NCBI RefSeq assembly: GCF_028641065.1 | Contig: NC_073402.1 | Location: forward strand, 20,956,001-21,020,000 | Direction: 5' to 3' | Length of the DNA stretch: 64,000 nucleotides | Source of the DNA: Leucoraja erinacea | Lineage: Eukaryota | In this document: piece after piece, positions 4,409 through 64,000 of the stretch | How positions within the stretch are numbered: the first letter of the stretch is position 1 | Layout of the letters: each line of letters starts with the position of its first letter | Notes under the pieces: generated by a model | What the model was told of the DNA's origin: nothing | Database searches by the model: none | Seen by the model: the letters and a program-made list of their open reading frames with translations, nothing else | Translations under genes and position numbers: made by a program

Positions 4409-4615
4409 TGGGCCTGTCCCACTTAGGTGATTTTTTGGGCGACTGCTGCAAAATTTTCAACATGTTGAAAACTTTTCAGTGACAGTGGTGATAATTTTTG
4501 CTGCCGTGGGTTGACGTAGGTGCTGTTGTAGGTTGTCGCCAGGTGTCGTAAGTGAATTCCATTAAAACTAGTCCCTGGCAGTCGCCTAAAGAGTCACCTA
4601 CGTGGGAGAGGCCCA
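4409..4615. mobile_element. Harbinger-type MITE
   Basis: TIRs TGGGCCTGTCCCACTTAGGTGA ... TCACCTACGTGGGAGAGGCCCA. TTA on the left flank; right-hand TSD not evident. Confidence 0.65.
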
Positions 4616-6850: not shown

Positions 6851-7313
6851 TGCCCCTGTCCCATTTAGGAAACCTGAACGGAAACCTCTGGAGACTTTGC
6901 GCCCCACCCCAGGTTTCCGTGCGGTTCCCGGAGGTTTTTGTCAGTCTCCCTAATGGTCGAAAGTGGTTTCCTCTTCTTCTATGTTTTCCGGAGATTATTT
7001 CAAAAAATTCAAAACCGGCCGCGACTAAAAATGGGTTGCCGGTATTTTAAAAACCGGCAACCCCCGGCAACCACCTTCAACTAGCATCGCAACCGGCTTT
7101 GACTAAAAAATTACCGATTTTTAAAACGGCAACCTATTTTTAGTCGCGGCTGGTTTTGAATTTTTTGAAATAATCTCCGGAACATAGAAGAAGCGGAAAC
7201 CACTTTCGACCGTTGGGGAGACTGACAAAAACCTCCGGGAACCGCACGGAAATTTAGGGTGGGGCGCAAAGTCTCCAGAGGTTTCCGTTCAGGTTTCCTA
7301 AGGGACAGAGGCA
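6851..7313. mobile_element. Palindromic Harbinger-type MITE inserted into the TTA of a SINE
   Basis: About 200-bp inverted arms starting TGCCCCTGTCCCATTTAGGAAACC. Flanks TTA / TTG. The host SINE head (cggtggcgcagcggtagagttgctgccTTA) resumes afterwards as cagcgccatagagccgggt. Confidence 0.85.
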
Positions 7314-12895: not shown

Positions 12896-13281
12896 TACGC
12901 CCATCTTTCTTAGCCTGTTCACATTTATTCTATTTTGATCACTCTTTTGAGAAAATATATATGTTACCTCCTCTGAACCTATGTCCTCTTATTCTATTCA
13001 AGCACCTTCTGTATCATTTGCAATTTTTCTTTTGTCTTCCAATTACATCATTCTGCAAGCTCATTTAGACATTGTTCTTCCATCTGAATAGCTGTGGAGG
13101 CCAAGTCGGTGGATTTAAGGCAGAGATAAATAGATTCTTGAATAGTACAGGTGTTGGAGGTGATGGTGAGAAGGCAGGAGAATGGGGTTAGGAGGGAGAG
13201 ATAGTTCAGCCATGATTGAATGGCAGAGCAGACTTGATGGGCTGAATGGCCTAATTCTGCTCCAAACACTTGTGATCTTAT

Positions 13282-13463
13282 GGTACACAAAAATGCTGGA
13301 GAAACTCAGCGGGTGCAGCAGCATCTATGGAGCGAAGGAGATAGGCAACGTTTCGGCCCGAAACGTTGCCTATCTCCTTCGCTCCATAGATGCTGCTGCA
13401 CCCGCTGAGTTTCTCCAGCATTTTTGTGTACCTTCGATTTTCCAGCATCTGCAGTTCCTTCTT
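13282..13463. mobile_element. Perfect 151-bp fold-back Penelope-derived element with 19-bp TSD
   Basis: 74-bp arms 13282-13355 / 13359-13432. Direct repeat AAACACTTGTGATCTTATG at 13264-13282 and 13464-13482. Confidence 0.9.
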
Positions 13464-14818
13464 AAACACTTGTGATCTTATGATCTTTTCAGATGAGGTG
13501 ACCCATCGAACCTTTAAAGTGGACCCGAGTGATCCCCTTGCTATGTTTGGAGGGAGAAAAACAGAAAAGCTGGTCTGACAGTATTAGAGAAACAGGGAAT
13601 GTTTCAGAATTGGGACCCTTCGCAAGATCTAAGAAAACGAGAAACTTGTTAGTCTGGGTAACAGTGGTGGGTGGATCAAAGGAAGCTTCTCCGATCGAGT
13701 GATGTTGCAGGTGGGATCAGATTGAGCTGCTATGGCTGTGCAGTTTGTTGCTATTATTGGCTTAGCTTACTGGGACATACCCAGACTATACAAAGAAAGG
13801 AAAAGAAAATACAATAGCAGGCAAAGATAGTTCTTGTATAGACAAGGAGAAAGAGCATACTTGATGATTTAAAAAAAGACACCAAATGCTGGAGTAACTC
13901 AGAGGATCAGGCAACATCCCTGGAGAACATGAGTAGGTGACGTTTCCATGTTCTATCACCTTCCGTCTCCTATCCATGTTCTCTGGAGATGCTGCCTGGC
14001 CCACTGAGTTACTCCAGCACTTTGTCTTTTTTTTTTTTTGGTGTTGTTGTAAACCAGCATCTGCAGTTCCTTGGTTCTACAAACTTGATGCTGCTGTGTT
14101 TTCTACAATGGTGACTACACTGCGATACTGTTTTGTTGAGAAGGACTTTAGGATATCATGAGAGGCACTAAATAAATGCAGCTTCTCTGTAGATCATAAG
14201 GGAACATTTACCCCATACATTTTTGTCATATTGGCAGAGTCACGGGTCACCTGAAACGTGGGCCTTCAGTTGATGAAAGTGGAGAACATTTTATCAAAAT
14301 ATCCACAGGTGCTGCAATCCAGATCCATGCATCTCATCCCCTCTCTTATATTTCCCAGCAAGTTTCATCCCTCTGCCTGCTCTTCCCACCGCCAACAGCT
14401 CTGATCATCACCCCGTTCCGCTCTTGCCCACCCCTAGCCCCCATTCCCGCCAAGTCAGCTTTCCCTCATAAATCGACTTCCAATGCAAAGAACGTGGTGT
14501 TCACGTTGCCAGGGAGCTGCCCTGAATGAGTTGGATAACTTGGTAACATGCAATAGATAATTGATTGTGGGCTAAGGGCTCAGTTTGGTATGAGAGGATG
14601 TTTGGTGACCCGCACATTGCAAACCAAGACATGATTCCTTTATAGACACAACATGCTGGAGTAACTCAGTGGGACAGTCAGCATCCACGAAGCGAAGGAA
14701 TGGGTGACTTTTCCTGCACATGATTCCCTTCTCATTCACTTTTCTTTTCACTTGTTGTTTTATTGTTTCTTAAATTTGCCTTCTAACCCTTTTTCTTAAA
14801 CATGTTTTTAAAATCTAG

Positions 14819-15332: not shown

Positions 15333-15360
15333 ACAATTCCACCCTAACTAATGGTATATG

Positions 15361-15573
15361 CTAGCCCTTGCTGTCTCCTCCCCTTCCTTAACCCTCGAGC
15401 TGTCTCCTCCCATCCCCCCGCCCTCGGGCTCCTCTTCCTCCCTTTTTCCTTCCTTCTCCCCCCCACCCCCCATCAGTCTGAAGAAGGGTTTCGGCCCGAA
15501 ACGTTGCCTATTTCCTTCGCTCCATAGATGCTGCTGCACCCGCTGAGTTTCTCCAGCATTTTTGTGTACCTTC
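15361..15573 (+). mobile_element. Penelope-derived element with intact hammerhead core, 11-bp TSD
   Basis: AATGGTATATG at 15350-15360 and 15574-15584. Pyrimidine-rich leader, then CTGAAGAAGGGTTTCGGCCCGAAACGTT. Confidence 0.85.
15474..15508 (+). ncRNA. Putative minimal (type I) hammerhead ribozyme motif, representative copy
   Basis: CUGAaGA (15478-15484), extra A, stem II GGGU-UUCG-GCCC, GAAA (15498-15501), palindromic helix III ACGU, cleavage triplet GUU. Stem I is only about 2 bp. Activity not demonstrable from sequence. Confidence 0.6.
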
Positions 15574-16366
15574 AATGGTATATGATATGCAGTTCTAAGC
15601 AATCTCCAGACCCTATCACCCTTCTCCAACACTACTGCAGGTTTGTTTCAAAGGTCACCAGTTGCTGTCCAAGCTGGTAGTCTCTGTTGTGATAGAGCTA
15701 AGAATAATACTGTTGAGAAAAAAAAGCTTAAAATAAATCTTCTCTGAATGTCTGTGTTTCCTGGAGATTCAGTTCCATAGCAGAGTATTTTGTTTGATTT
15801 TTAAAAAGCCTGAATTGTGTCGAATGTCTTAAGGACAGACACCACATTGTTATCTGGAGAAGATCCCTCGAGACCAGATCAATCTCTGTGCTTGCCACTA
15901 ATAAACCTTTCAAAGTGTGTCAGTAAAGAGAATAGCAGATGCTGACATTAGAAGCAAAAACATCTCCCAAATGCAACTGAGGATGTGCCATAACGTTTGA
16001 AATGTTTGCCTTTCTAGGTTCTAAGGTTATTTATAGTCGGGTTCTGTTTTCTCTGAAGCGCAAACCTGGTGAAATGATGAAACAAATCATTTTGTCTTTC
16101 ATTTTAGTGTCTCATTGCATCACCAATCAACAATTACATTTAGTTTCATCTCGGGTTAAGATCTGACATTTTCTCTGTAATCTAAAACTCTGGGTTGTTT
16201 TGAGTGCGGCAGTAAGTAACATTGCTAAATTTAGATCAAGTTGACTGCTCTTTTTGGTTAAACTTGCAAAAAAGCCATGAAAATAAGGAAGAGATTTCTT
16301 TATATCCATTTTGCCTATTCTGGATAGGAATTCTACCTCTCTAAACAATCTGTTGTCTCTTCCTAG

Positions 16367-18722: not shown

Positions 18723-19512
18723 ATTATCCCATCCCTGCTGCGGTGATCCCATCTGCGAAGTACAAAGGGCCAAAGAGCACAGGGAACCGTGGGCTGAGAA
18801 TGTTGCTTGGAGACGGTGCTGAGATGTGTAGCTCCTATTTTGCCCTTTGCTTCCCGTCCTCCTTGCATGAAACTCCACAATCTAGTGGCAAAGCGGTGCC
18901 GTTTGTGGTCTTCACCGCATGATTGTCCTACTTTCTCTGGCGTGGAAGCATAATTGCAACTTATGAAAGATGCTTTGGAGCACCGGAAGTCATAATACTT
19001 TGAAGTTGCGCTCCACAGCACAGGAAATGACACTGCTTTTGCGGATTTGAACCTGAATTTTGGATCCTCCTGGAAAAGGATGAATTGGACCAGATTTATT
19101 TCAATACCTTTATTTTAACTATGTAGTTTAACTCAAAAGTTTTTTCTCAAAAAAATAAATCTGTTTTGTGCACTCCATGTGGTGCTTCTGTGTCTTTGAG
19201 TTGCTCAAGGAATAGACTTCATTGAGGGGCTGTTTCTTGAAGATATTGCTCCTTAGGCAGATGTCTTTGAGTAAAACTCATCCTGTTCATAACCATCGAA
19301 CTGGGTAGATACTGGGCTGATTGAGGGAGGTGTGAATTATTTTTGCACACAATTAATTTAAACTTTGGATGTGAAAATGTTCTTGTCCATGGTTGAGCTG
19401 CTTTGCGGCAATGTTCACTGTTGCATTCTCTGTCGGGCAATCTTTCCAAGGTGGGGAAGGGAACTAGGGAAATCAGCGTCGAGATGCTGTACACAGTCTT
19501 ATTCCTGTTGTG

Positions 19513-19699
19513 GGTACACAAAAATGCTGGAGAAACTCAGCGGGTGCAGCAGCATCTACGGAGCGAAGGAAATAGGCAACGTTTCGGCCCGAAACGTTGC
19601 CTATTTCCTTCGCTCCATAGATGCTGCTGCACCCGCTGAGTTTCTCCAGCATTTTTGTGTACCTTCGATTTTCCAGCATCTGCAGTTCCTTCTTGAACA
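19513..19699. mobile_element. 151-bp fold-back Penelope-derived element with 14-bp TSD
   Basis: Arms 19513-19663 with one mismatch. CTTATTCCTGTTGT at 19498-19511 and 19700-19713. Confidence 0.9.
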
Positions 19700-19772
19700 C
19701 TTATTCCTGTTGTAGCTGGACTGTTTGGTAATAAATAACAAGTTAATTTTTTTTTTTTAAACTTCCGTACAG

Positions 19773-19885: not shown

Positions 19886-19944
19886 GTAAGAACATCGGTC
19901 CCGAGCAAGAAAGTGTTGTCATTAATCAACCTATAGTTGTAGAA

Positions 19945-20170
19945 AGGGACACAAAGTTCGAGACTAACTCAGCGTGCCAGGTAGCATCCTTGGAGAACAT
20001 GGATCGAGACCCTTCTTCAGACTCTCGTTTCAGGTCGAGACCCTAATTCAGATCTCAACCCGAAACGTCACCTATGCACGTTCTCCAGAGATGCTGCCTG
20101 ACCTGCTGACTTACTCCAGCACTTTGTGTCCTTTTGTGTATTAACCAGTATCTGAAGTTCATTGTTTCTG
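19945..20170. mobile_element. Older fold-back Penelope-derived element
   Basis: gacacaaag...actcagc arm, cccgaaacgtcacc core, reverse arm. TTGTAGAAA on both flanks. Confidence 0.7.
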
Positions 20171-20834
20171 CAATTGTAGAAATCTTGCTTCATTTTCATA
20201 AAAACATCGATTAAAATCTTTGCACTGGGTTGTATAAGACAGTGAGAAACCAGCTGACTAGGGGTGCGGTGGGTGTAACCCTTGGACATGTTTTCGTTAA
20301 TCCTGATAGTAATCCTCGGTGGTGTAGCGGTAAATCCCCATTTCTGTGGGTGACATATCTGCAGGATTCATATGATCCTGAAGCAGTAACAGAAGGGAAA
20401 AGTTTTAACCCAGTGAACAAACATGTGGATTGTAAATGGGGTGGAATTCTCAGCAGTTGGCACTTGAGAACCAGCTTGCTGAGATTTATGGAGGCAAATT
20501 AAATAAGACAAGCTGCTCCCAAGGGCAGATTAGCATTTATAATGTAACATGATGGTCATGAAGTTCCTGCTTTAAGAGTTTCACTCGGAGCAGCTAGTTT
20601 TCCCAGACCAGGGGATACATCATGGGTTAAGTGAGAAGAGTAAAGTGTTGTTGGGGGTGGGGGGGGAGGGAGGGCGGGAGGGGGGAGGGGGAAGAATTTG
20701 AGGTATGGGAGCGTTTATGTTGTCTGCCCACAGAGCCTCCACCATCACTGCAGTCTGCTCTCATGTACTCCACGCCTGCCTGTTGATCGGTTTGGCTTTT
20801 TGTTGGATACTCCCACCCATCCTGCACCTTAGAC

Positions 20835-25519: not shown

Positions 25520-25990
25520 GATCGTCCCTGGCGGTTTCTGCCACCTTTCCACGGGAAGGCACAACACTGCCCTGCCTTTCAGCAATCTGACGCTTTGACT
25601 GGCTGCAATTCAACCAAAGTTCCCGTGCAACCACAGGAGATACAGAACCTTTTCCCTCTTGCCTCCCCATCATCCAGGGATGCAAACAGCCCTTCCAGGT
25701 GAAGCAACAACTCACTTCCCCTCCAATCTAGTCTATTTCATTCATCAAAACATGATATCCTTGTCAGTGGAGGCTCCGAAGGTACAATGTGGCGCACCTG
25801 TGCTCAGTGTAAATGGATAACCCTGAGCTTCCTATTTGCCTACCACTTTAATTTTCATTCCTGCTCCCATTGATTTGTTTGCCTTTGGCCTCTTGTACAA
25901 CTGTAGCAAAGCCCAACATAAGCCTGAGGAACTGCACCTCAACTTTCATCTTCATTCTGGTGTCAATATTGAGTTCTGCAACTTTGGATA
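25520..25990 (+). mobile_element. Decayed Penelope-like fragment
   Basis: aaacagcccttccaggtgaagcaa and aagcctgaggaactgcacctc resemble the GIY-YIG region of the other copies. Confidence 0.55.
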
Positions 25991-25995
25991 ACTTA

Positions 25996-26305
25996 AAGGC
26001 CTGTTCCACTTTCCTGAGTTATTCACGAATTCTCCCGAGTTTTCTAACTCGCAGAATGTTCGTGACGAGACCGTAGGAGTCCGTGGATATATCGTAGCAG
26101 CTCGTCATGCCAACCGTAGGTACTCAGGGCTATTTTCTTACTCGTGGACATTTTTCATCAGACGGAAAAAACGTCCCGACATACCTGATGCCACGAGTAC
26201 CTACGGCTGGCATAACGAGCCGCTACGATATATCCACGGACTCCTACAGCGAGTTTGAAAACTCAGGAGAATTTGTGAATAACTCGGGAATGTGGGACAG
26301 GCCCT
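25996..26305. mobile_element. Harbinger-type MITE, palindromic, TTA TSD
   Basis: AAGGCCTGTTCCACTTTCCTGAGTTATTCAC ... GTGAATAACTCGGGAATGTGGGACAGGCCCT. TTA at 25993-25995 and 26306-26308. CpG-rich. Confidence 0.85.
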
Positions 26306-27341
26306 TTACTTGACTTCTTACTTTACATCAGAACTGGTCAGTTCTGCTGTAGGAAATATTCCAGCAAGATTATGCCAGAGTGCGGCAACTCTTTGTGTCC
26401 TCTTCCCAGAGAAGGAACGACCATCATCTGTTTCACACTCCACTCTTTTAAATATCTTCTCTAGTTATATTCCACACTCTGCATCTTCTATTATACTCGA
26501 GTTTGACGATTGTATTTATGTATCGTATCTGATCTGTTTGGATGGCATGCAGAACAAAGCTTTTCACTGTACCTCAGTACACATGACAATAATAAGCCTA
26601 AACCTATCATTAGCTCATTTCCCCCCAGAATATTTGGATAGACTGATGCTGGCCTGGGCATTTCCTATAGTTTAGAACTTTAATGCATTTACTTTCCATT
26701 GTTTATGTTGTCTTTGAACAATTTCATTAACCTATCAACCCAATGACTTAATCCACCAGAGATACAAGGAACTGCAGATGCTGGAATCTTAAGCAATGGA
26801 CAGGCGATATTTCAGGTTGGGTCTGAAGAAGTGTCCTGACATGAAATGCCACCTGTCCATTCCTTCCCCAGATGTTGCCTGACCCACTGAGTTCCTACAG
26901 TATCTTAACTTACATATACCACACACTTCCACGGCAACCCTGGCTTTGTCCTACCGGAGAGATTGGATTTGACCTACTCATCCATTGCAACTTACAACGA
27001 ATTGTCATTCATTCCTAATTCTGACAGTACTTCCACCCTGAGAATATTATTCTATTTCTCTTTGCCTCGCCTGCTGAGTGTTTCCAGAAGTTTTTTTATA
27101 ACCATATTTAGTTTTTTCCTTTGTGTATTATATAGCTAATGTATTATTGTGATACACAATGTTATTAAAAACATTTCATGTCCATTACATTTCCAATTTC
27201 TTGTTGCCATTGCTTAAGCTGAATGACAAAATTCCCTCCCAAAATGTTTGAAGGGTGAAAACAGAATTTATCCTTCAATCTTTTCATTCCTGTTGTAATC
27301 GAATCTGCTTGTCACTCATTTAAAAGTGAAGATCAAAAATT

Positions 27342-31985: not shown

Positions 31986-32474
31986 GAGCAAAAAGCAAAG
32001 TGCTGGGGGAACTCGCTGGATCAGGCAGCATCTGGGGAGGGAATGGACAGGTGAGTTGGGACTCCTCTTTAGATTTGTCCTGACCCATTCTCTTCCCAGA
32101 TGCTGCTGGAGCTAGGAAGGTGCTTGGTGGACAGAGGAGGGGTGAAGGATGTTTGGTGTATGGAACCAGGCAGGAGAGGGGGAGGAATGGAGTTGGGAGG
32201 CATGCAGATGATGAATGGAGACAGAAAGAAGAGAGAGGAAAAAGATGGCGGAGGGGAGGGTGACAGGGAGACAGCTGCTGAAACGTGGTTAGCAGGAACA
32301 CAAAGGCTATCAGTACAGGAGTCTGGGAACTAAGGAAGGTGATATTGGGAGAGAGGTGAATGATAGATGGAAACAGAACCAGAAGGAGGAAGGTGGGGGA
32401 CAGGATGTCGGGGGAAGAGACTGCAGATGAAATAGGTGTGAAATCAGTGGATGGAAACAGGACGGGGAGCCTAA

Positions 32475-32700
32475 TGCCCCTGTCCCACTTAGGAAACCTG
32501 AACGGAAACCTCTGGAGACTTTGTGCCCCACCCAAGGTTTCCATACGGTTCCCGGAGGTTTTCGTCAGTCTCCCTACCTGCTTCCACTACCTGCAACCTC
32601 CGGCAACCACCTGCAACCTCCGGGAACTGCACGGAAACCTTGGGTGGGGCGCAAAGTCTCCAGAGGTTTCCGTTCAGGTTTCCTAAGTCTGACAGGAGCA
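32475..32700. mobile_element. Harbinger-type MITE, shorter relative of the 6851 element
   Basis: TGCCCCTGTCCCACTTAGGAAACCTGAACGG ... CCGTTCAGGTTTCCTAAGTCTGACAGGAGCA. Flanks TAA / TTA. Confidence 0.85.
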
Positions 32701-33335
32701 TTACACCCAACTTCACAAGATGAAAGAAAGACACAAAGTGCTGGAGTAACCCAGAGGGTCGGGCAGCATCTCTGGAGAAAAAGGACGGGCAATGTTTTGG
32801 GTTGGGATCCTTCTTCTGAAGAAGGATTCTGACCCGAAGCGGCATCCATCCATGTTCTCCAGAGATGCTGCCTGACCCATTGAGTTACTCCAGCACTTTG
32901 TGTCTTTCTTTGGTATAAACCAGCTTCTGCCTCAATTTTAAAGGACGCCCCCATTAGCTTGTAACTATGTCCCTTTATTTGAGAATGATCATCTGGATCT
33001 AGTCTATGCCCAAGATTGTCACCGAATAGGTGGATGGTGAAAAGTTCCAGACAAATTATGCAACTGTTGTCTTTATATTGTGAAATCGGAAGTTTACATC
33101 AGTACGTTTGATGTTGAGTAGCACAAAAAAAAGTCACAGCAAGTTGGTTTCATTTACGTTTTCCTGAGTTTCATTTTCTTGATACCGAAAGTGCAGAAAA
33201 ACACAGTGCAAATGACGATGTGTTTTCTTGAAGCAATGTAATTTGTGCCTTGTCTGGTGAATGTTTTTTTTTAATGGCATTGAAAACAAGTTGAAAAGTT
33301 TGAAGCTATGAGGCAGCAAAATTAGCTGGCATTTA

Positions 33336-35880: not shown

Positions 35881-36859
35881 GTTGTTTCAGTCGGTTCACA
35901 ATTCAGCAAATAATTGACCTCACTTATTCTTTGGCAGAAGAAAGAAAGCCACAAAATTCTTTGAATTGCAGCATCATCTATAGCTTCTGTCATTCCATCT
36001 ATAAATCTATTTAAAAAATCAAAATGTTTCTTTGTTTAGTGCATTCCCATCCACAGATTTGTGAATACTAAATGTGCAGAGTCCAGAATCTCTAAAGCTC
36101 AAACTAAATCACTGGGACAAGATTTGCAATGTTATTGAAGTGAGCAATGCTCCCTGATACGGAGAGATTGCCATCCTGCAGATGTGCCACAGGAAGACGG
36201 TGTTTGTTCTCAGACGATCAACGCTGACCACAACTCGATGAAACTCGATGAAAACTCCCTTGGGCTTTGTTAAAATATCTTGATACATAAGGCAGTGAAT
36301 GCAGGTGTCTATGTGGCCCTGTTCCTGATATCAGAGTCCTTGGATCATGGCCAGTGATTGGATTCTTCACCAACTCTTGATTAAGGTTAATTCTAGCTCG
36401 ACAAAGGTCTTCGAGTCACACAGTTGTACAGCACAGAAACAGGCCCTTCGTGCCAACTCGTACACGCCAACCAAAATGCTCCTTTTAAACTAGTCCCATT
36501 CACTGCCGAAACAGTCAGGGATTATGGGGAGAAGGCAGCAGAATGGGATTAGGGGAGAAAGATAGATTGAATAGCAGAGTAGATTTTATGGGCCAAATGG
36601 CCTAATTCTGCTCCTATACCACCCTATGAACACTGCCATTTGGCCTAAATCTCAGGACACCCGCCTATAGTGTTACAGCATCTCACTGTGATGCACAGCC
36701 TGCAGGCTAAGCTTGCTCTGTGATGTCATGGTTTGGATTTGCCCATTCAACAGATTATTTTTGAACGTGGTGGGCAAAATGCCGTGGGCTTGAGATTAAA
36801 ACGTTGATACAAAAAGCAGATTTCTATAAAGCTAGGAATGTTTTAGTTTTTCGAGTTTT

Positions 36860-46770: not shown

Positions 46771-47207
46771 GTCCACAAGTTTAAAGCTCAATTTAAACCT
46801 GTCTCTGTCTCACACCTTATCAATCTAAAGAAGGATCTTGATCAGAAGCTTCACCTTTCCATGTTCTCCAGAGATGGACACAAAATGCTGGTGTACCTCG
46901 ATGGGTCAGGCAGCATCTCTGGAGAAAAGGAATAGGTGACGTTTCAGGTTGAAACCCTGCTTCAGGCCCCTGGCTGACCTGTTACTCCAGCACTTTGTGT
47001 CCTTTTGTGTTTTAACCAGAATCTACAGAATAGAGTTACAGGCTATGTGAAAAATATATAGTACAATCTTAAAGGGAATACCCGGCTAGGAAAACCTGGG
47101 GACTTTTTGCATAAAGCTCTAAAAATGGTTGGGTCAGTTGATAAATTGTAATGTTGATTGTGGAACATTTACTGCTGCTTAATTAAAGGAACAGTGTGGA
47201 TTATCTG

Positions 47208-47472
47208 TGTAAGAATGAACTGCAGTTGCTGGTTTAAATCGAAGGTCGCACAAAATGCTGGAGTAACTCAGCGGGACAGACAGCATCTCTGGAGAGAAGG
47301 AATGGGCAACGTTTCGTGTCGAGACCCTTCTTCAGACTGATGTCAGGGGAGTGGGCGGGACAAGGATAGAATGTAATCGAAGGCAGTAAGACTGGTGGGA
47401 GAACTGGGAAGGGGGAGGGGATGGAGAGAGAGGGATAGTAATGGCTACTTGAAGTTAGAGAAGTCAATTGCT

Positions 47473-47505
<33 letters not shown>

Positions 47506-48250
47506 GGTGGGGCTACCCAAGTGAAATATGAGGTGCTGTTCCTCCAATTTGTGCTGGGACTTACTCTGACAATGGAGGTGGCCCAGGACAGAAAGGTCAG
47601 TGTGGGAATGGGAGGGGGTGTTAAAGTGTTTAGCATCCTGGAGATCAGGTAGGTTAAGGCGGACTGAGCAGAGGTGTTCAGCTAAACGATCGCCGGGCCC
47701 GTGCTTGGTCTCGCTGATGTACAGATGTTGACACCTGGAGCAGCGGATACAGTAGGTGAGGTTGGAGGGAGGTGCAAGGGACAAGTGTTGCATCTCCTGC
47801 GGTTGCAGGGGAAAGTACCTGGGGAGGGGGTGGTTTGGGTGGGAAGGGAACGAGTTGACCAGGGAGTTGCGGAGTGAACGGTCTCTGCGGAAAGCAGAAA
47901 GGGGTGGAGATAGGAAGATGTGGCCAGTAGTGGGATCTCGTTGGAGGTGGTGAAAGTGTTGGAGGATTATATGCTGTATGCGATGACTGCTGGGGTGGAA
48001 GGGGGGACAAGAGGGACTCTGTCCTTGTTGCGAATGGGGGAGCGGGGGAGCAAGAGCGGAGCTGTGGGATATCGAGGAGACCCTAGTGAGAGCCTCATCT
48101 ATAATGGAAGAGGGGAACCCCGTTTCCTAACGAATTAGGACATCTCCGATGACTTAGTATGGAAAACCTCATCCTGGGCGCAGATGCAGTGTAGATGAAG
48201 GAATTGGTTAGTAGGGGATAGAGTCTTTACAGGGAGCAGGGTGGGAAGAA
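47208..48250 (-). mobile_element. Penelope-like element 3' end: GIY-YIG endonuclease remnant plus 3' unit with hammerhead motif
   Basis: Minus strand SNLTYCIRCSRCQHLYISETKHGPGDRLAEHL...HKLEEQHLIFHLGS...DFSNFK*, continuous with CTGAAGAAGGGTCTCGACACGAAACGTT (47335-47308) and the short-repeat body. Confidence 0.88.
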
Positions 48251-51555: not shown

Positions 51556-51571
51556 ATATGTATGTGTGTAT

Positions 51572-52000
51572 ACCGAAGATAGACACAAAGTGCTGGAGTA
51601 ACTCAGCAGGTCAAGCAGCATCTCTGGAGACAGAGAAAAGGTGATGTTCTTGGTTGGAACCTGAAGAGTTCCAATGCGAAACGGCACCTTTTTCTCCAGA
51701 GATGCTGCCTAACTTGCTCAGTTACTCCGGCACTTTGTGTCTATCTTCGGTATAAACCAGCATCTGCAGTTCCTTTTATATATGTGTGTGTGTGTGTCCA
51801 TGTATGTATATGTATAAGAAGGAACTGCAGATGCTGGAAAAATCGAAGGTAGACCAAAATGCTGGAGAAATTCAGCGAGTGAGGCAACATCTATGGAGCG
51901 AAGGAATAGGTGACTTTTCAGGTCCAGACTTCACCAGTCTGAAGAAGGGTCTGGACCCGAAACGTCACCTATTGCTTTGCTCCATAGATGCTGCCTCACC
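51572..52000. mobile_element. Two adjacent fold-back Penelope-derived elements embedded in TG/TA microsatellite
   Basis: Inverted arms 51572-51780 and 51816-52000, with core ctgaagaagggtctggacccgaaacgtcacc. Confidence 0.75.
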
Positions 52001-54418: not shown

Positions 54419-54548
54419 TAACTTGGATCATTTAACTCTGGTTAAACATGCTATATAAATGTTAGTTGCTGCAAACATACTATCTGTTCTGTTAAAAGCA
54501 AAATGATAATTTTATCAATGAAGTGTGTATATATATATATTGTTTTAG

Positions 54549-55603
54549 GGGGACAAAACAAATCCACTATGAAAGAAATAATGGATGGAGCTCAAGATGG
54601 TATAATTTGCAATCTAGAATTGAAGATTGACGATAGTGACAATGCATCCACTGGTTCTGCTGCAGCAAAAGAATTGCGCCCTTCTCAATGCAAGAGAGGA
54701 ATTTCATCCAATCCTCACGTACGCACTGCATTCAAGCGGCCAAGAGTCGTTGAAGAAATGCATTCGTTGCCGTGCGTTAAGAAACCTCATACTAACAGCG
54801 TGGAATCTCTGACAGGGCGGCTATGTTCCTTTCAGTCCCATAACTGGAAAGGAGATCCTGGTGCCACGGTGCCTGCAGACAAGGGACAGGGCGCTTCGTC
54901 TCGTGCGTTAGATGAGAGCGAAGACCTCGATGATTCCTTGCTGGAGCTGGAGGAAAAGGACCTCGATGAAGATGATCTACTTAACCTTACATCTGAGGAA
55001 ATCGATAAGATTCTCCAGGAATCAGATGATGACGCTGATGATAATACTGATTCACTCAGATTTGTCGATGCCCTTAATGAGCATCAATGTCGGGATAACA
55101 GTCGGCCCTCTGCGTCTCTCCCAAATACACCACAGTTGCCCAAAAGCTGCCTTGTTCGTGATGAATTGGAAACGACTTGTTCAGGTAATGTCTCGTTGAC
55201 AGATTTTACTGTGTTGAAGTTGACCAAAGAGGTTAATCAAAGTCTCAAAGTTACGGAACAGCGTAATCACAATTGTCCTCGTGAAAATACTGAATTAGAG
55301 ATATCAAAACAGCCTTATTATCTCTCGGCTAACAAGGTAGCTGAGATAAACCCGAAGCAAAATGGTGCAGATGCAGAAACTGAGAGGGAAAACCATGAAG
55401 CCAGCAGCAGTGAAGAAGAACCTGACGCTCAGGAGAAGATGCTTAGAACAGCCTCGACAAGCCCTTCACCAAATGTGCTCAACGGCGACAATATGTTAAC
55501 GTTGAGTGAGCAAAATATTCCTGAAGAACAGGCTGATGATGGAAGGGTAAAAGAACCCCCCAGCATTCCTGGATCGAGTAATGAAGTAGTTCCTGACCTG
55601 AAG
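54549..55603 (+). CDS. S100PBP: S100P-binding protein-like, large acidic coding exon (candidate ATG at 54569)
   Basis: Only long non-TE ORF in the window (371 aa). ttttag acceptor at 54547-54548, AAG|gtaaac donor. ATG in ccactATGa context. Motif EDLDDSLLELEE...LTSEEIDKILQE resembles the S100PBP DDSLLELS region. Confidence 0.8.
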
Positions 55604-56459
55604 GTAAACGGGCTATAAATGATTTTTATGTGTCCATTACATAAGAGGGTTCTATTAGTTACCTAGTGAGTTTGTCTCACACAGCTAGAGTAAATTAAAT
55701 AATATGTGGAAGTCTTCATTGTAGAATTTTATCATAATCGTCACTGAATTTAGTACACAGAGAGAGAGATACACTGGTTTACGTGACATTTTCCGTAAAC
55801 AGATTTGTCCACTTCACTTGGGTCAATGTAAATGATCCCAAGGTCCTGTTTTGAAGAAATGCAAGAGTGTTAACGGCAGGCAATATTAACCCTGAATATC
55901 ACTCGAACAGGAAAGTATAAAGAAGAATGCTATAAATTAATCTAAATGATAGTTGGAAAGTAAATTCAAAGATTAGAAAACACAAACATTTAGAAAATTG
56001 CACAGCCCACATTGTGCTGCAGAATCACTAATCACATCAGCTATGGGTCTAATCTGATATGGGATTCACGTCTCCATTGAGTTTACTTTCACTTATTTAA
56101 TTGTACTGCTAATAAATGTTTTTGCTTTGTGTTTAAAAATGATGGAAAATCAGTTTTGAAAATCTTGAAAAATAATCTTGAAAAAAAAATCTTTAAAAAT
56201 AAGTTTTTCTTAGCTACTTAATTTAAATTGTTTTTTAAGTTTCTCTAAAATGTTAATGGCAATCAAAAGATCATCTTTTTAAGATCATCTCTGTCTTGTA
56301 CAACACGTATGAAGGGGACAGGCAGCTTACAAGCTGTTTGAGGACTGGATCTCATCTGTTACTTCATCAATGGGTCTGACAGGTGCAGCACAAACCAGCG
56401 AAGTTGCCAATTCCTTGTTGCCCTTGAGAAGGTGATGCTGAACCAACATCTTGACCTAG

Positions 56460-60968: not shown

Positions 60969-61439
60969 TGTGTGTGTGTGAAGGCCCAGAGCTGCAGGGG
61001 AGTCAGGGCGAGTTGATGCTGGGCCGACACCTTTATAAAAATACATGATTACCATCTTTTTCTTTACTTGCTTGATAATTATATTTAATGGTAATTAGTG
61101 AGTGCAACCGTGCAATATTTTGTCATATTATTAAATTGAGTATAATATGTTTTATTGTATGGTTATGCACTGGGATGTAACCTATAACCTTGTTTGACAC
61201 TCTTGGGAGACTGGCTCCCCCCCCCAAACAAAACTTGAAATGCTGTCTCCTCCCATCCCCCAGCCTTCGAGCTCCTCCTCCTTTTTCCTTTCTTCCCCAC
61301 GCCCCCCACCCCTCCACCTCCGATCAGCCTGAAGAAGGGTTTCGGCCCGAAACGTTGCCTTTTTCCTTCGCTCCGTAGATGCTGCTGCACCCGCTGAGTT
61401 TCTCCAACTTTTTTGTGTACCTTTGAAATGACGCCCCTG
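60149..61439. mobile_element. Possible hAT-like non-autonomous element (GC-rich, contains TG microsatellite and a nested Penelope-derived insert)
   Basis: Ends CAGGGGTGCCGT and (reverse) CAGGGGCGTCAT. No convincing TSD. Nested insert 61243-61422 has TSD TTGAAATG. Confidence 0.45.
60798..60980. repeat. Compound (TG)n microsatellite
   Basis: Directly visible; explains the HT/VC-repeat ORFs. Confidence 0.95.
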
Positions 61440-61619
61440 TTTGACAGCTCCGGCGTCTTGGACAATGCAATTTTAGAATGTTTTACATGGGCCCTGTTTA
61501 TCATTATTACAGATAATTTAATTGTAAGGAATTTGGACAATAGCTATAAGATCCATATCTATGTCCATAGATGCCATGGACATTTTATTGTTGAAAGCAA
61601 TCTTGTTTTTCTAATGTTT

Positions 61620-61872
61620 AAGAAGGAACTGCAGATGCTGGAGAATCGAAGGTTACACAAAGCTGGAGAAACTCAGCGGGTGCAGCAGCATCTATGGAGC
61701 GAAGGAAATGGGCAACGTAATGGGGGGGGGGGAGCCAGTCTCCCAAGAGTGTCTAACAAGGTTATAGGTTACAACCCGTCTGAAGAAGGGTTTCGGCCCG
61801 AAACGTTGCCTATTTCCTTCGCTCCATAGATGCTGCTGCACCCGCTGAGTTTCTCCAGCTTTTTTGTGTAAC
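61620..61872. mobile_element. Fold-back Penelope-derived element with 18-bp TSD and extra spacer
   Basis: CTTGTTTTTCTAATGTTT at 61602-61619 and 61873-61890. Spacer 61722-61777 is the reverse complement of 61172-61225. Confidence 0.88.
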
Positions 61873-64000
61873 CTTGTTTTTCTAATGTTTGAGATACATA
61901 GGATGCTGTGGTGGTGGTGGAGAACAGTTTGTTATTGATCCTATTGAATAATTTTGCTTATGGAAATGTTGAAAACACCATCGGACCATTTGACATTTGA
62001 GATGACAACTTTATGTAGTTCATTATGCTGCTATAATTTTATAAATACTGTCATAAAGTATATTTTTGATAGGTTCTCTTCATACGTTCTCTCTCTGCGT
62101 TCCTGGTTCCATCTGCCTAACTTTTTTTCTCTTTCCCGCCTCTAAACTCTCTCAGCCTCCCCCATCGGGCTTTATCTGCCCATCATCCCCACCTAACTTG
62201 ACTGCATCCAACACCGACCTCTCCCTGTCTCACTCCTCCATCTCAGTTCATGACACTGACTCTCTTCCATCTCCACTGTCGGGTCTTGACCCGGAATGAT
62301 GACCGTCTCTTTGCCTCCACAGGTGCTGCTTGATCTTCTGAATTCCTCCAGCAGTGTGTGTTTTTTTTCTTAAATCTAGATTCCAGCATTCTGCTATTAC
62401 ATCTGTCTCTTCTCTGTATACCCTTGTTAACCAACTGTATTGCTCAAATGGTGCTATTTGTCATTATTATCGGCATCAGGAGAGGAAGAAAATAAACTCT
62501 GTTGTCACTTGACCTGCATTTCAGTTTACTGAAAGCACTGTTCACATTTTAGTGAAGTCCTTTTTGATAGTCCTGATGTCTTGAGTCGTACTTGTGGCCT
62601 CGAAGACTCCTATAGTTGTTGCTTACCGAAGTTTACCGACATGATATAACCCTAGAGTTCAGAAATTCTTGGTGACAATGCTTCCCATGCCCAAACTATT
62701 GGCAATAAATGCAGTGTAGACTCTTGGTAAGAGATATGACGTTACTTTAATTAGCTGCTTTAAATGTGTTGCCATTAAATCGCTTGTGCTGCAATGGTGT
62801 GCACACAATGAGAAAACGCATGAGAGAATATCAACAACTCTGGCAATAAAACAACATTAAACATTAATGCTGTGGTTGGCGTTCAGACTAAGGTCTTAGC
62901 ATTTACAAATGGTATCTTCACTTGTCCCCAAATGAAGTGTGCAACGCAATTGTAACCCTCCATCCCTTTGTATGATTAGCTGATGAACAATGGCTGTGGA
63001 TACCTGGTCAATGTCCCGCTGTACTCCACTGGCCTTGGATGTCATTTTAAGCAGAGTAACGAGGGGAAGTTAATTTTACTGTCATCCCATTGCTGAGTAA
63101 AGTTGCTGCAGCCTGCAGTTTAGGAGAAAGATTTCTACCAACGTGCACAATAACTTAACTTTGATTGCAGGGTCATGTTTCAGTGCACCCGAAACATCAC
63201 CCATTCCTTCTCTCTGTCCCCCCCTGAGTTACTCCAGCATTTTGTGTCAATCTTCCATTTAAACCAGCATCTGCAGTTCTTTCCTACACATGGTTAATTC
63301 CCAAGTCACGTTGGAAGGAGCATATTTAAATTTTTGACCCAACAGGAGCTGAAATAAAGAGATCAATCAAATAAACAATTTGAATTCTTGTACTTGGGTT
63401 CAGATCTGATATTAAATTTATCAATCAAATATCTATTATATATATCCCTGTACTATCTTGTTAAACATTTTCATGAATTACATTGACAATATATGGCTCA
63501 TTTCATAGATTTAATTGGTGAAAGATGTTAAATAATTTGCTTTACAGATTGGAATATTCCCCAGTTTGAAATATAGTCATGTGGCTTTTTAACATACATG
63601 GGGATATTTGCTCAGTGAATGGTTCTTTGCTTTTTTAACCAGTTTGGGTTCAGCGTATGGTAGGCTTTTTAAATATATGATAGCCTTTGTCCACCATAGA
63701 TATTATTGTTCAAGTGCTTGAGAGTCTCTTCAGTTGGTGTCGTCTACTACCATTCGTTGTATATCCCTGGGAAAACACAAAGTTAAAATACATGAAATGT
63801 TAATCTGACTTTACAAAGATTAAATGTTTCTTCCGATATAGTGGAGAAGAACTTTGCAAAACCTAGCACACGCACACAGACACGCACATGCAGGCACACT
63901 TCAAGCAGCATAAAGAAGTGCCTAAGATATACAAATAAGTGTGAGCTAACGATGCTATGAGAAACACGTGACTGCGGATTTGAAACACCTATTCTATTCA

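Follow-up and report, generated by a model that had tools for sequence, protein, structure and literature searches.

A perfect fold-back that is most likely an ordinary leftover of a Penelope-like element, made in one step at insertion

Layout of the fold-back locus

The window, by which we mean the whole 64-kb stretch of DNA analyzed here, belongs to a repeat-rich animal genome, and the best protein matches of a decayed open reading frame at 47464-48126 are named from ray and skate. It contains a perfect fold-back with arms at 13282-13356 and 13358-13432, each 75 nt long, 100% complementary and separated by a 1-nt spacer (75+1+75). These are the same 151 bp that a sequence-only reading of the locus had described as a perfect fold-back of 74+3+74. 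The left arm (minus strand) is an inverted pLTR copy without tail, and its outer end lies at the boundary where tail-less copies of the family stop. The right arm (plus strand) is a direct pLTR copy, in which downstream pLTR follows the 3' half of the minimal hammerhead. It continues into a 36-nt Penelope-like element (PLE) tail (13433-13468, plus strand), found on this side only. The arms meet in a native 15-nt palindrome, GTTTCGG-C-CCGAAAC (13350-13364), composed of hammerhead loop II, the 3' strand of stem II and GAAAC, and the centre base of this junction agrees with the tailed arm. The CUGANGA half of the hammerhead is absent from both arms of the 13282-13432 fold-back, which is thus no longer a ribozyme. 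The direct part measures about 120 nt and has no open reading frame, the entire insertion being a hairpin.

Two identical copies of a 19-bp direct repeat surround the fold-back (13264-13282 and 13464-13482, both on the plus strand) and pair as a target site duplication (TSD). The first 5 nt of the left copy equal the element's 3' end, and its last G is the first base of the inverted arm. Both the repeat and the coincidence of its AAACA with the element's own end had been claimed from the sequence, and both are borne out by the repeat coordinates and by loose contig ends: AAACA at 13464-13468 is the family 3' end, behind which 307-367 contigs per run diverge into mixed flanks. The insertion target is the 3' end of a high-copy repeat (13086-13263, plus strand), seen in contig depth and in a loose end behind 13263, with a second copy at 36602. 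We take this repeat to be the end of a CR1-type LINE, and the repeats neighbouring the fold-back are presumably CR1 and SINE. The segment 13264-13482 is a 5'-truncated PLE insertion, made up of a tail-less inverted arm, a junction, a direct arm, a 36-nt tail and a target duplication. The locus itself is inert repeat DNA.

We mapped contigs from 4 of 22 public sequencing runs (X1, X3, X7 and X15) to 12900-13800 at 90% likeness; summed contig depth was not taken as copy number. Contigs crossing from the tail into the flank occur in X1 (0 differences in 356), X15 (3) and X3 (4), under three organism codes, and X1 may be the sample that the window derives from. In X7, the match of the flank contig begins at 13464 after 27 unmatched letters and includes 20 differences and 10 gap letters; we infer that this is probably an empty site already holding AAACA. 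Loose contig ends are found behind 13433-13435 in at least three of the four runs (157-205 contigs) and behind 13468 in all four, and the family thus has two termini separated by one tail.

That the fold-back is a chimeric assembly artefact appears highly improbable to us. Among the contigs listed, none crosses the entire unit or its left junction; at the left junction this is uninformative, since the flank there is a high-copy repeat and the list covers a minority of the records. Against an artefact stand the TSD on both sides, the one-sided tail, a sister copy with one arm mismatch, the many diverged units that share the same build, and the tail-to-flank contigs described above. The 15 joints listed (of 714) all connect the left with the right arm at other positions, with sides of 20-28 nt, and come from other loci. 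Two symmetric-looking joints, 13315/13399 and 13339/13375, were considered as extra palindromic axes and rejected, as subfamily mismatches end the alignment there and the intervening letters are partly missing. Other contigs, in X1 and X15, lead from 13468 to 13280 (tail end, 12 letters, start of the inverted arm) at a depth of 400-500, and are possibly tandem fold-back units or adjacent insertions in a larger repeat.

The repeat family and its relatives in the window

The open reading frame remnant at 47464-48126 (minus strand) is 50% identical to P0001 over 228 columns. P0001 in turn matches the Pfam family GIY-YIG with an E value of 0.00046 and 20.9 bits, under the cutoff of 22.6, and a Pfam search of six open reading frames from the window returned no match for the remnant itself. 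Directly behind it on the same strand follow a pLTR and tail (47366-47206, 83% identical), and this decayed GIY-YIG-type end with its pLTR and tail (47206-48126, minus strand) ties the repeat to an endonuclease-bearing (EN+) PLE. A minimal hammerhead descriptor fits four of five monomer stretches, the fifth being incomplete, and defines a predicted ribozyme. No Rfam match at gathering score was found in the whole window, and the minimum free energy fold of the monomer hammerhead region lacks the hammerhead. This region is no more stable than shuffled sequence (z -0.58) and the tail region does worse, so that folding lends the motif no support. An exact 25-nt pattern gave 0 loci in metagenome contigs. 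Because a GIY-YIG-type remnant is followed by pLTR and tail on the same strand, and because the hammerhead descriptor matches, we assign the family, on sequence criteria, to the pLTR end of an EN+ PLE. No reverse transcriptase belonging to it was identified within the window.

A sister fold-back (19498-19713, plus strand) has the same axis and centre base and a 14-bp TSD. It lies 6 kb from the first, the left ends of the two agree within 1 nt, and they differ at 4 positions in 186 nt: the mirrored pair G13340/C13374, a single change in the left arm of the sister and a single change in the tail. The sister, at 19513, thus carries one unrepaired arm mismatch, and its TSD does not overlap the tail end. 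An asymmetric unit of the same subfamily (unit 61615, at 61602-61890, minus strand) has a longer inverted arm and an 18-bp TSD overlapping AAACA. Its filler (61724-61777) comes from nearby DNA, being a 96% inverted copy of unique sequence at 61172-61225, about 500 bp off, which we read as a sign of end-joining repair. The filler source sits just ahead of the solo copy at 61242. Another tail-less solo copy (15350-15584, plus strand) has an intact hammerhead core and an 11-bp TSD. The solo copies at 15361 and 61242 each have their own TSD, and in young units the inverted arm stops 0-4 nt from the point where these copies end.

We chose 14 candidate inverted units by hand from the single 64-kb window. 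The tail motif is found on the direct strand in 11 of these 14 and on the opposite strand in none. TSDs of at least 8 bp flank eight of the 14, one of them within a microsatellite; candidate TSDs at 51566 (simple repeat) and 52809 (self-match) were discarded. The TSD lengths recorded are 19, 18, 16, 14, 11, 11, 9 and 8 bp. In three units (13283, which is the fold-back itself, 61615 and 51811, the last in a microsatellite) the TSD overlaps the last 5 nt of the tail, with a chance expectation of about 0.001 per site; the overlaps lie at 13464-13468, 61615-61619 and 51811-51815. Junctions vary: two fall on the 15-nt palindrome, the majority of the rest lie close to the hammerhead core, and some contain filler. 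The inverted arm extends further upstream than the tailed arm in units 61615, 46098, 1497 and 51811, and the direct arm is the longer one in unit 51566. In the old units at 19893-20300 and 46800-47060, hammerhead segments at the junction are duplicated or arranged in tandem plus inverted order.

Several further features were observed in the window. TCAG/TCTGAAG marks, to within a few bases, the start of many copies (15440-15485, 87, 1610, 26822, 32816, 51936 and 61778); in the 15361 copy this motif comes after a long pyrimidine tract ending in CAG. The start point may correspond to a 3' splice site in hammerhead helix I, of the kind described for the Penelope of D. virilis (PMC4209133), or to a point where reverse transcription stalls. 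Long palindromic elements at 6865-7301, 25990-26311, 32472-32703 and 4409-4615 are probably candidate MITE-type elements, and one such element directly adjoins an old PLE fold-back at 32723. BLAST detected no match to the PLE arm in any of the four. We considered the first three as fold-back descendants and rejected this origin, as BLAST detected no match between them and the arm or the monomer. A 390-codon open frame at 54446-55618, which is acidic, of low complexity and without Pfam match, probably represents a large host-gene exon.

Axis, mirrored variant and arm identity

The sequence-only reading had placed the axis at a micro-palindrome at the junction of stem II and GAAA. The palindrome is indeed native, since it occurs in the unfolded monomer at 15488-15502, but it spans 15 nt, pairs loop II with GAAAC and is centred on the first C of the stem II 3' strand. 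It is the longest palindrome in the monomer, and an equal length was reached in 10 of 1000 shuffles of the core.

The two arms share a mirrored variant, G at 13340 (family majority A) and C at 13374 (family majority T), both given on the plus strand. As had been noted, the sister has A/T at this pair and cctatTtcc recurs in other copies (at 15507, 19600 and 61809); none of six further young arms or solo copies that were aligned within the window has C at the 13374 position. The variant is private only within the window, though, and not a mark of this copy, as first supposed. Non-T letters at 13374 amount to 7.3, 8.8, 8.5 and 44% of depth in runs X1, X3, X15 and X7, and non-A letters at 13340 to 6.9, 7.9, 7.5 and 48% (7-9% in three runs and 44-48% in the fourth), where the non-consensus remainder in X1, X3 and X15 may include other letters and mapping favours reference-like copies. 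Changes of C>A or C>G at 13374 are absent from the X7 list, and C is therefore a major allele in that run. G/C is an allele shared genome-wide. The mirrored pair favours a single source for both arms, by about 14 to 1 at a frequency of 7%. This much of the proposal that one arm was templated from the other stands; that one arm was copied from its partner does not follow from the mirrored variant.

The sequence-only reading had also proposed a test of whether the arms of one locus share private variants more often than arms of different loci. In 11 of the 14 window units, arm identity is 89% within and 80% between units (permutation p 5e-5). The own partner is the top match in six of the 11, and in four of the other five an alignment of 24-32 nt ranks on top. 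Likeness within units is expected under all models but chance.

The insertion is common to runs at about 1% flank divergence and probably missing at about 6%. Across these age bounds, the probability that 150 sites show 0 mismatches lies between 0.55 and 0.01. Later conversion within the hairpin, which would have made the arms identical after insertion, draws support from the upper bound (about 3% per lineage), where this probability is about 0.01. It is 0.4-0.55 at the youngest bound (0.4-0.6%), both TSD copies are likewise perfect, the sister retains its one mismatch, and the arms of older units are just 75-90% alike. Conversion, raised in the sequence-only reading, is thus not needed at this age, and we regard it as very unlikely. 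The hairpin is a real and mostly ordinary short leftover of a PLE, most likely made in one step at insertion.

Formation of the inverted arm and comparison with known systems

Starting from what is observed, namely the layout with its TSD, the two termini, the native palindrome at the axis, the sharing between arms and the link to a PLE, we favour, at about even confidence, a dead 5'-truncated EN+ PLE insertion whose hairpin arose when both nicked target strands primed on the same source RNA and the cDNAs were joined at the palindrome. The GIY-YIG domain would nick the two target strands at points 14-19 nt from each other. Reverse transcription would be primed by one 3'-OH at the distal start site, the tail end, aided by the 5-nt AAACA match, and by the other at a proximal site, which lies some 33-36 nt further upstream, either in the same RNA or in a sibling RNA of one source copy. 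The two cDNAs would both be antisense to the same pLTR stretch and could therefore pair with each other only at self-complementary sequence. Joining at the native 15-nt palindrome and fill-in would then leave a perfect, single-tailed fold-back flanked by a TSD. We infer that both primings belong to one event, and likewise how the cDNAs were joined.

Several observations argue for two primers: the strand bias of the tail, inverted arms that end at the tail-less boundary, loose ends at both termini, variable junctions, longer inverted arms in at least four units, and the arm likeness, which includes units with filler junctions. In vitro, another PLE cuts and extends both strands, with two start sites that bound the tail; hammerhead cleavage is unneeded and a dimer is predicted (Frangieh et al., 2024, PMC11167929). 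Other points weigh against two primers. In both same-axis copies the centre base agrees with the tailed arm, joining in cis or in trans ends in an identical final sequence, and longer inverted arms could stem from later deletion at a fragile palindrome. Unit 51566 has a longer direct arm, the own partner ranks first in only part of the units, and these were hand-picked from one window. The tail here is always on one side and overlaps AAACA, whereas in the work of Frangieh et al. neither start site preferred a strand and target homology was absent.

The main rival is snap-back in cis at insertion, which we consider possible but rather unlikely. Here, the cDNA would pass the palindrome, fold back, extend itself, and be cut or joined at the tail boundary. 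The perfect mirror with its common variant fits this scheme, and so does the centre base in two of two copies. Junction palindromes were interpreted as self-priming by Arkhipova et al. (2013, PMC3846280), in a closely related proposal that puts self-priming on the antisense template, and Craig et al. (2021, PMC8557442) attribute the tail to endonuclease resolution. However, an extra step is required for the inverted arm to stop where tail-less solo copies also end, and, unless there was later deletion, there is no template for sequence missing from the tailed arm in units 61615, 46098, 1497 and 51811. The snap-back put forward in the sequence-only reading thus survives as a possibility akin to published self-priming, yet on its own leaves the end of the inverted arm at the tail-less boundary unexplained. 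Whole copying of palindromic source elements, with A-type and G-type fold-backs descending from two palindromic masters, is less probable still, and we think it unlikely. It would account for two copies 6 kb apart with the same axis and centre base and matching left ends, for contig pieces across the same axis with 7 differences in X1 and X7, and for a common C allele. Most units differ in their junction, though, the left end falls at a fixed point, a reverse-transcription start site, and does not vary as it would after 5' truncation, and the unit lacks upstream pLTR and hammerhead core.

Returning to priming from both strands, we tentatively extend it to PLE insertions with inverted pLTR and tail in general, at less than even confidence. 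In such overlapping twin priming, the strands would begin at the two initiation sites and the trailing cDNA would displace the leading one. With similar reserve, we suggest that native palindromes, or end joining with filler, connect the two same-sense cDNAs, and that short target/RNA matches aid distal priming. If true, this would link in vitro start sites to the one-sided tail and the inverted arm found in genomes. Because short copies are numerous in this ray- or skate-type genome, overlapping twin priming would be testable by counting, and the fold-back is a clean specimen of how PLE inverted ends are built. A literature search covering few subscription papers returned no application of the two-primer reading to PLEs.

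Like MITEs and fold-back DNA elements, the locus combines a short palindrome with a TSD. Unlike MITEs, it has a 36-nt tail outside the right arm, TSDs of variable length, and ends that match retrotransposition start sites. We rejected a MITE on two features, inverted repeats that are not terminal and TSDs of 8-19 bp, and the suggested route from a retroelement to MITEs is unsupported on the same grounds; PLE hairpins can nevertheless pass for MITEs. In L1 twin priming, the second strand of the target serves as a primer at an internal site of the RNA, which produces a 5' inversion within the TSD and a microhomology join. There, inverted and direct parts are adjacent, whereas here both span one and the same sequence, with a fixed second site.

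The monomers resemble the minimal hammerheads of metazoan PLEs, as defined by Cervera and de la Pena (2014, PMC4209133), and those of non-LTR retrozymes (10.64898/2026.07.22.740005), with CUGANGA, a bulged base, stem II, GAAAC and GUH. Cervera and de la Pena also note opposite-strand pairs, located 100-700 bp apart in Schistosoma. Unlike a retrozyme, the fold-back is an inverted single unit with no tandem array and no CUGANGA in either arm. A non-LTR retrozyme was rejected, as tandem units with a complete type I hammerhead are absent at the fold-back. Anolis Poseidon (PAc) likewise has two termini one tail apart with the hammerhead just upstream, and an uncleaved template, in line with arms here that extend upstream of the GUH site. 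In contrast to PAc, where initiation is described as not homologous to the cut DNA, we find 5-nt target/tail overlaps in 13283, 61615 and 51811 (PMC11167929). Inverted arms are left unexplained in the sections of that paper covered here.

The closest likeness is to Pen2a, Pen2 and Pen3a of Adineta vaga (PMC3846280; scheme in PMC8557442), which share a head-to-head inverted pLTR, a 30-40-nt tail at one end and a TSD. Arkhipova et al. (2013) report that the inverted and direct pLTRs overlap over 15 bp (Pen2a_Av; the junction palindrome here is 15 nt), that the 31-bp tail is optional, that TSDs measure 8-10 bp, and that inverted junctions abound in palindromes. Layout, junction palindromes and the self-priming explanation are thus already published. 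Unlike in Adineta vaga, the direct part here lacks an open reading frame, the junction lies inside the hammerhead motif, and TSDs reach 19 bp. According to Craig et al. (2021), an inverted 5'-truncated copy with a one-sided 30-40-bp tail is typical and its mechanism open, and the fold-back bears on this inverted-end step, which they list as unresolved. Our locus and its relatives combine the features of EN+ PLEs: a pLTR behind a GIY-YIG-type open reading frame end, a 36-nt tail at one end, an inverted 5'-truncated copy at the 5' end inside the TSD, and a predicted minimal hammerhead motif.
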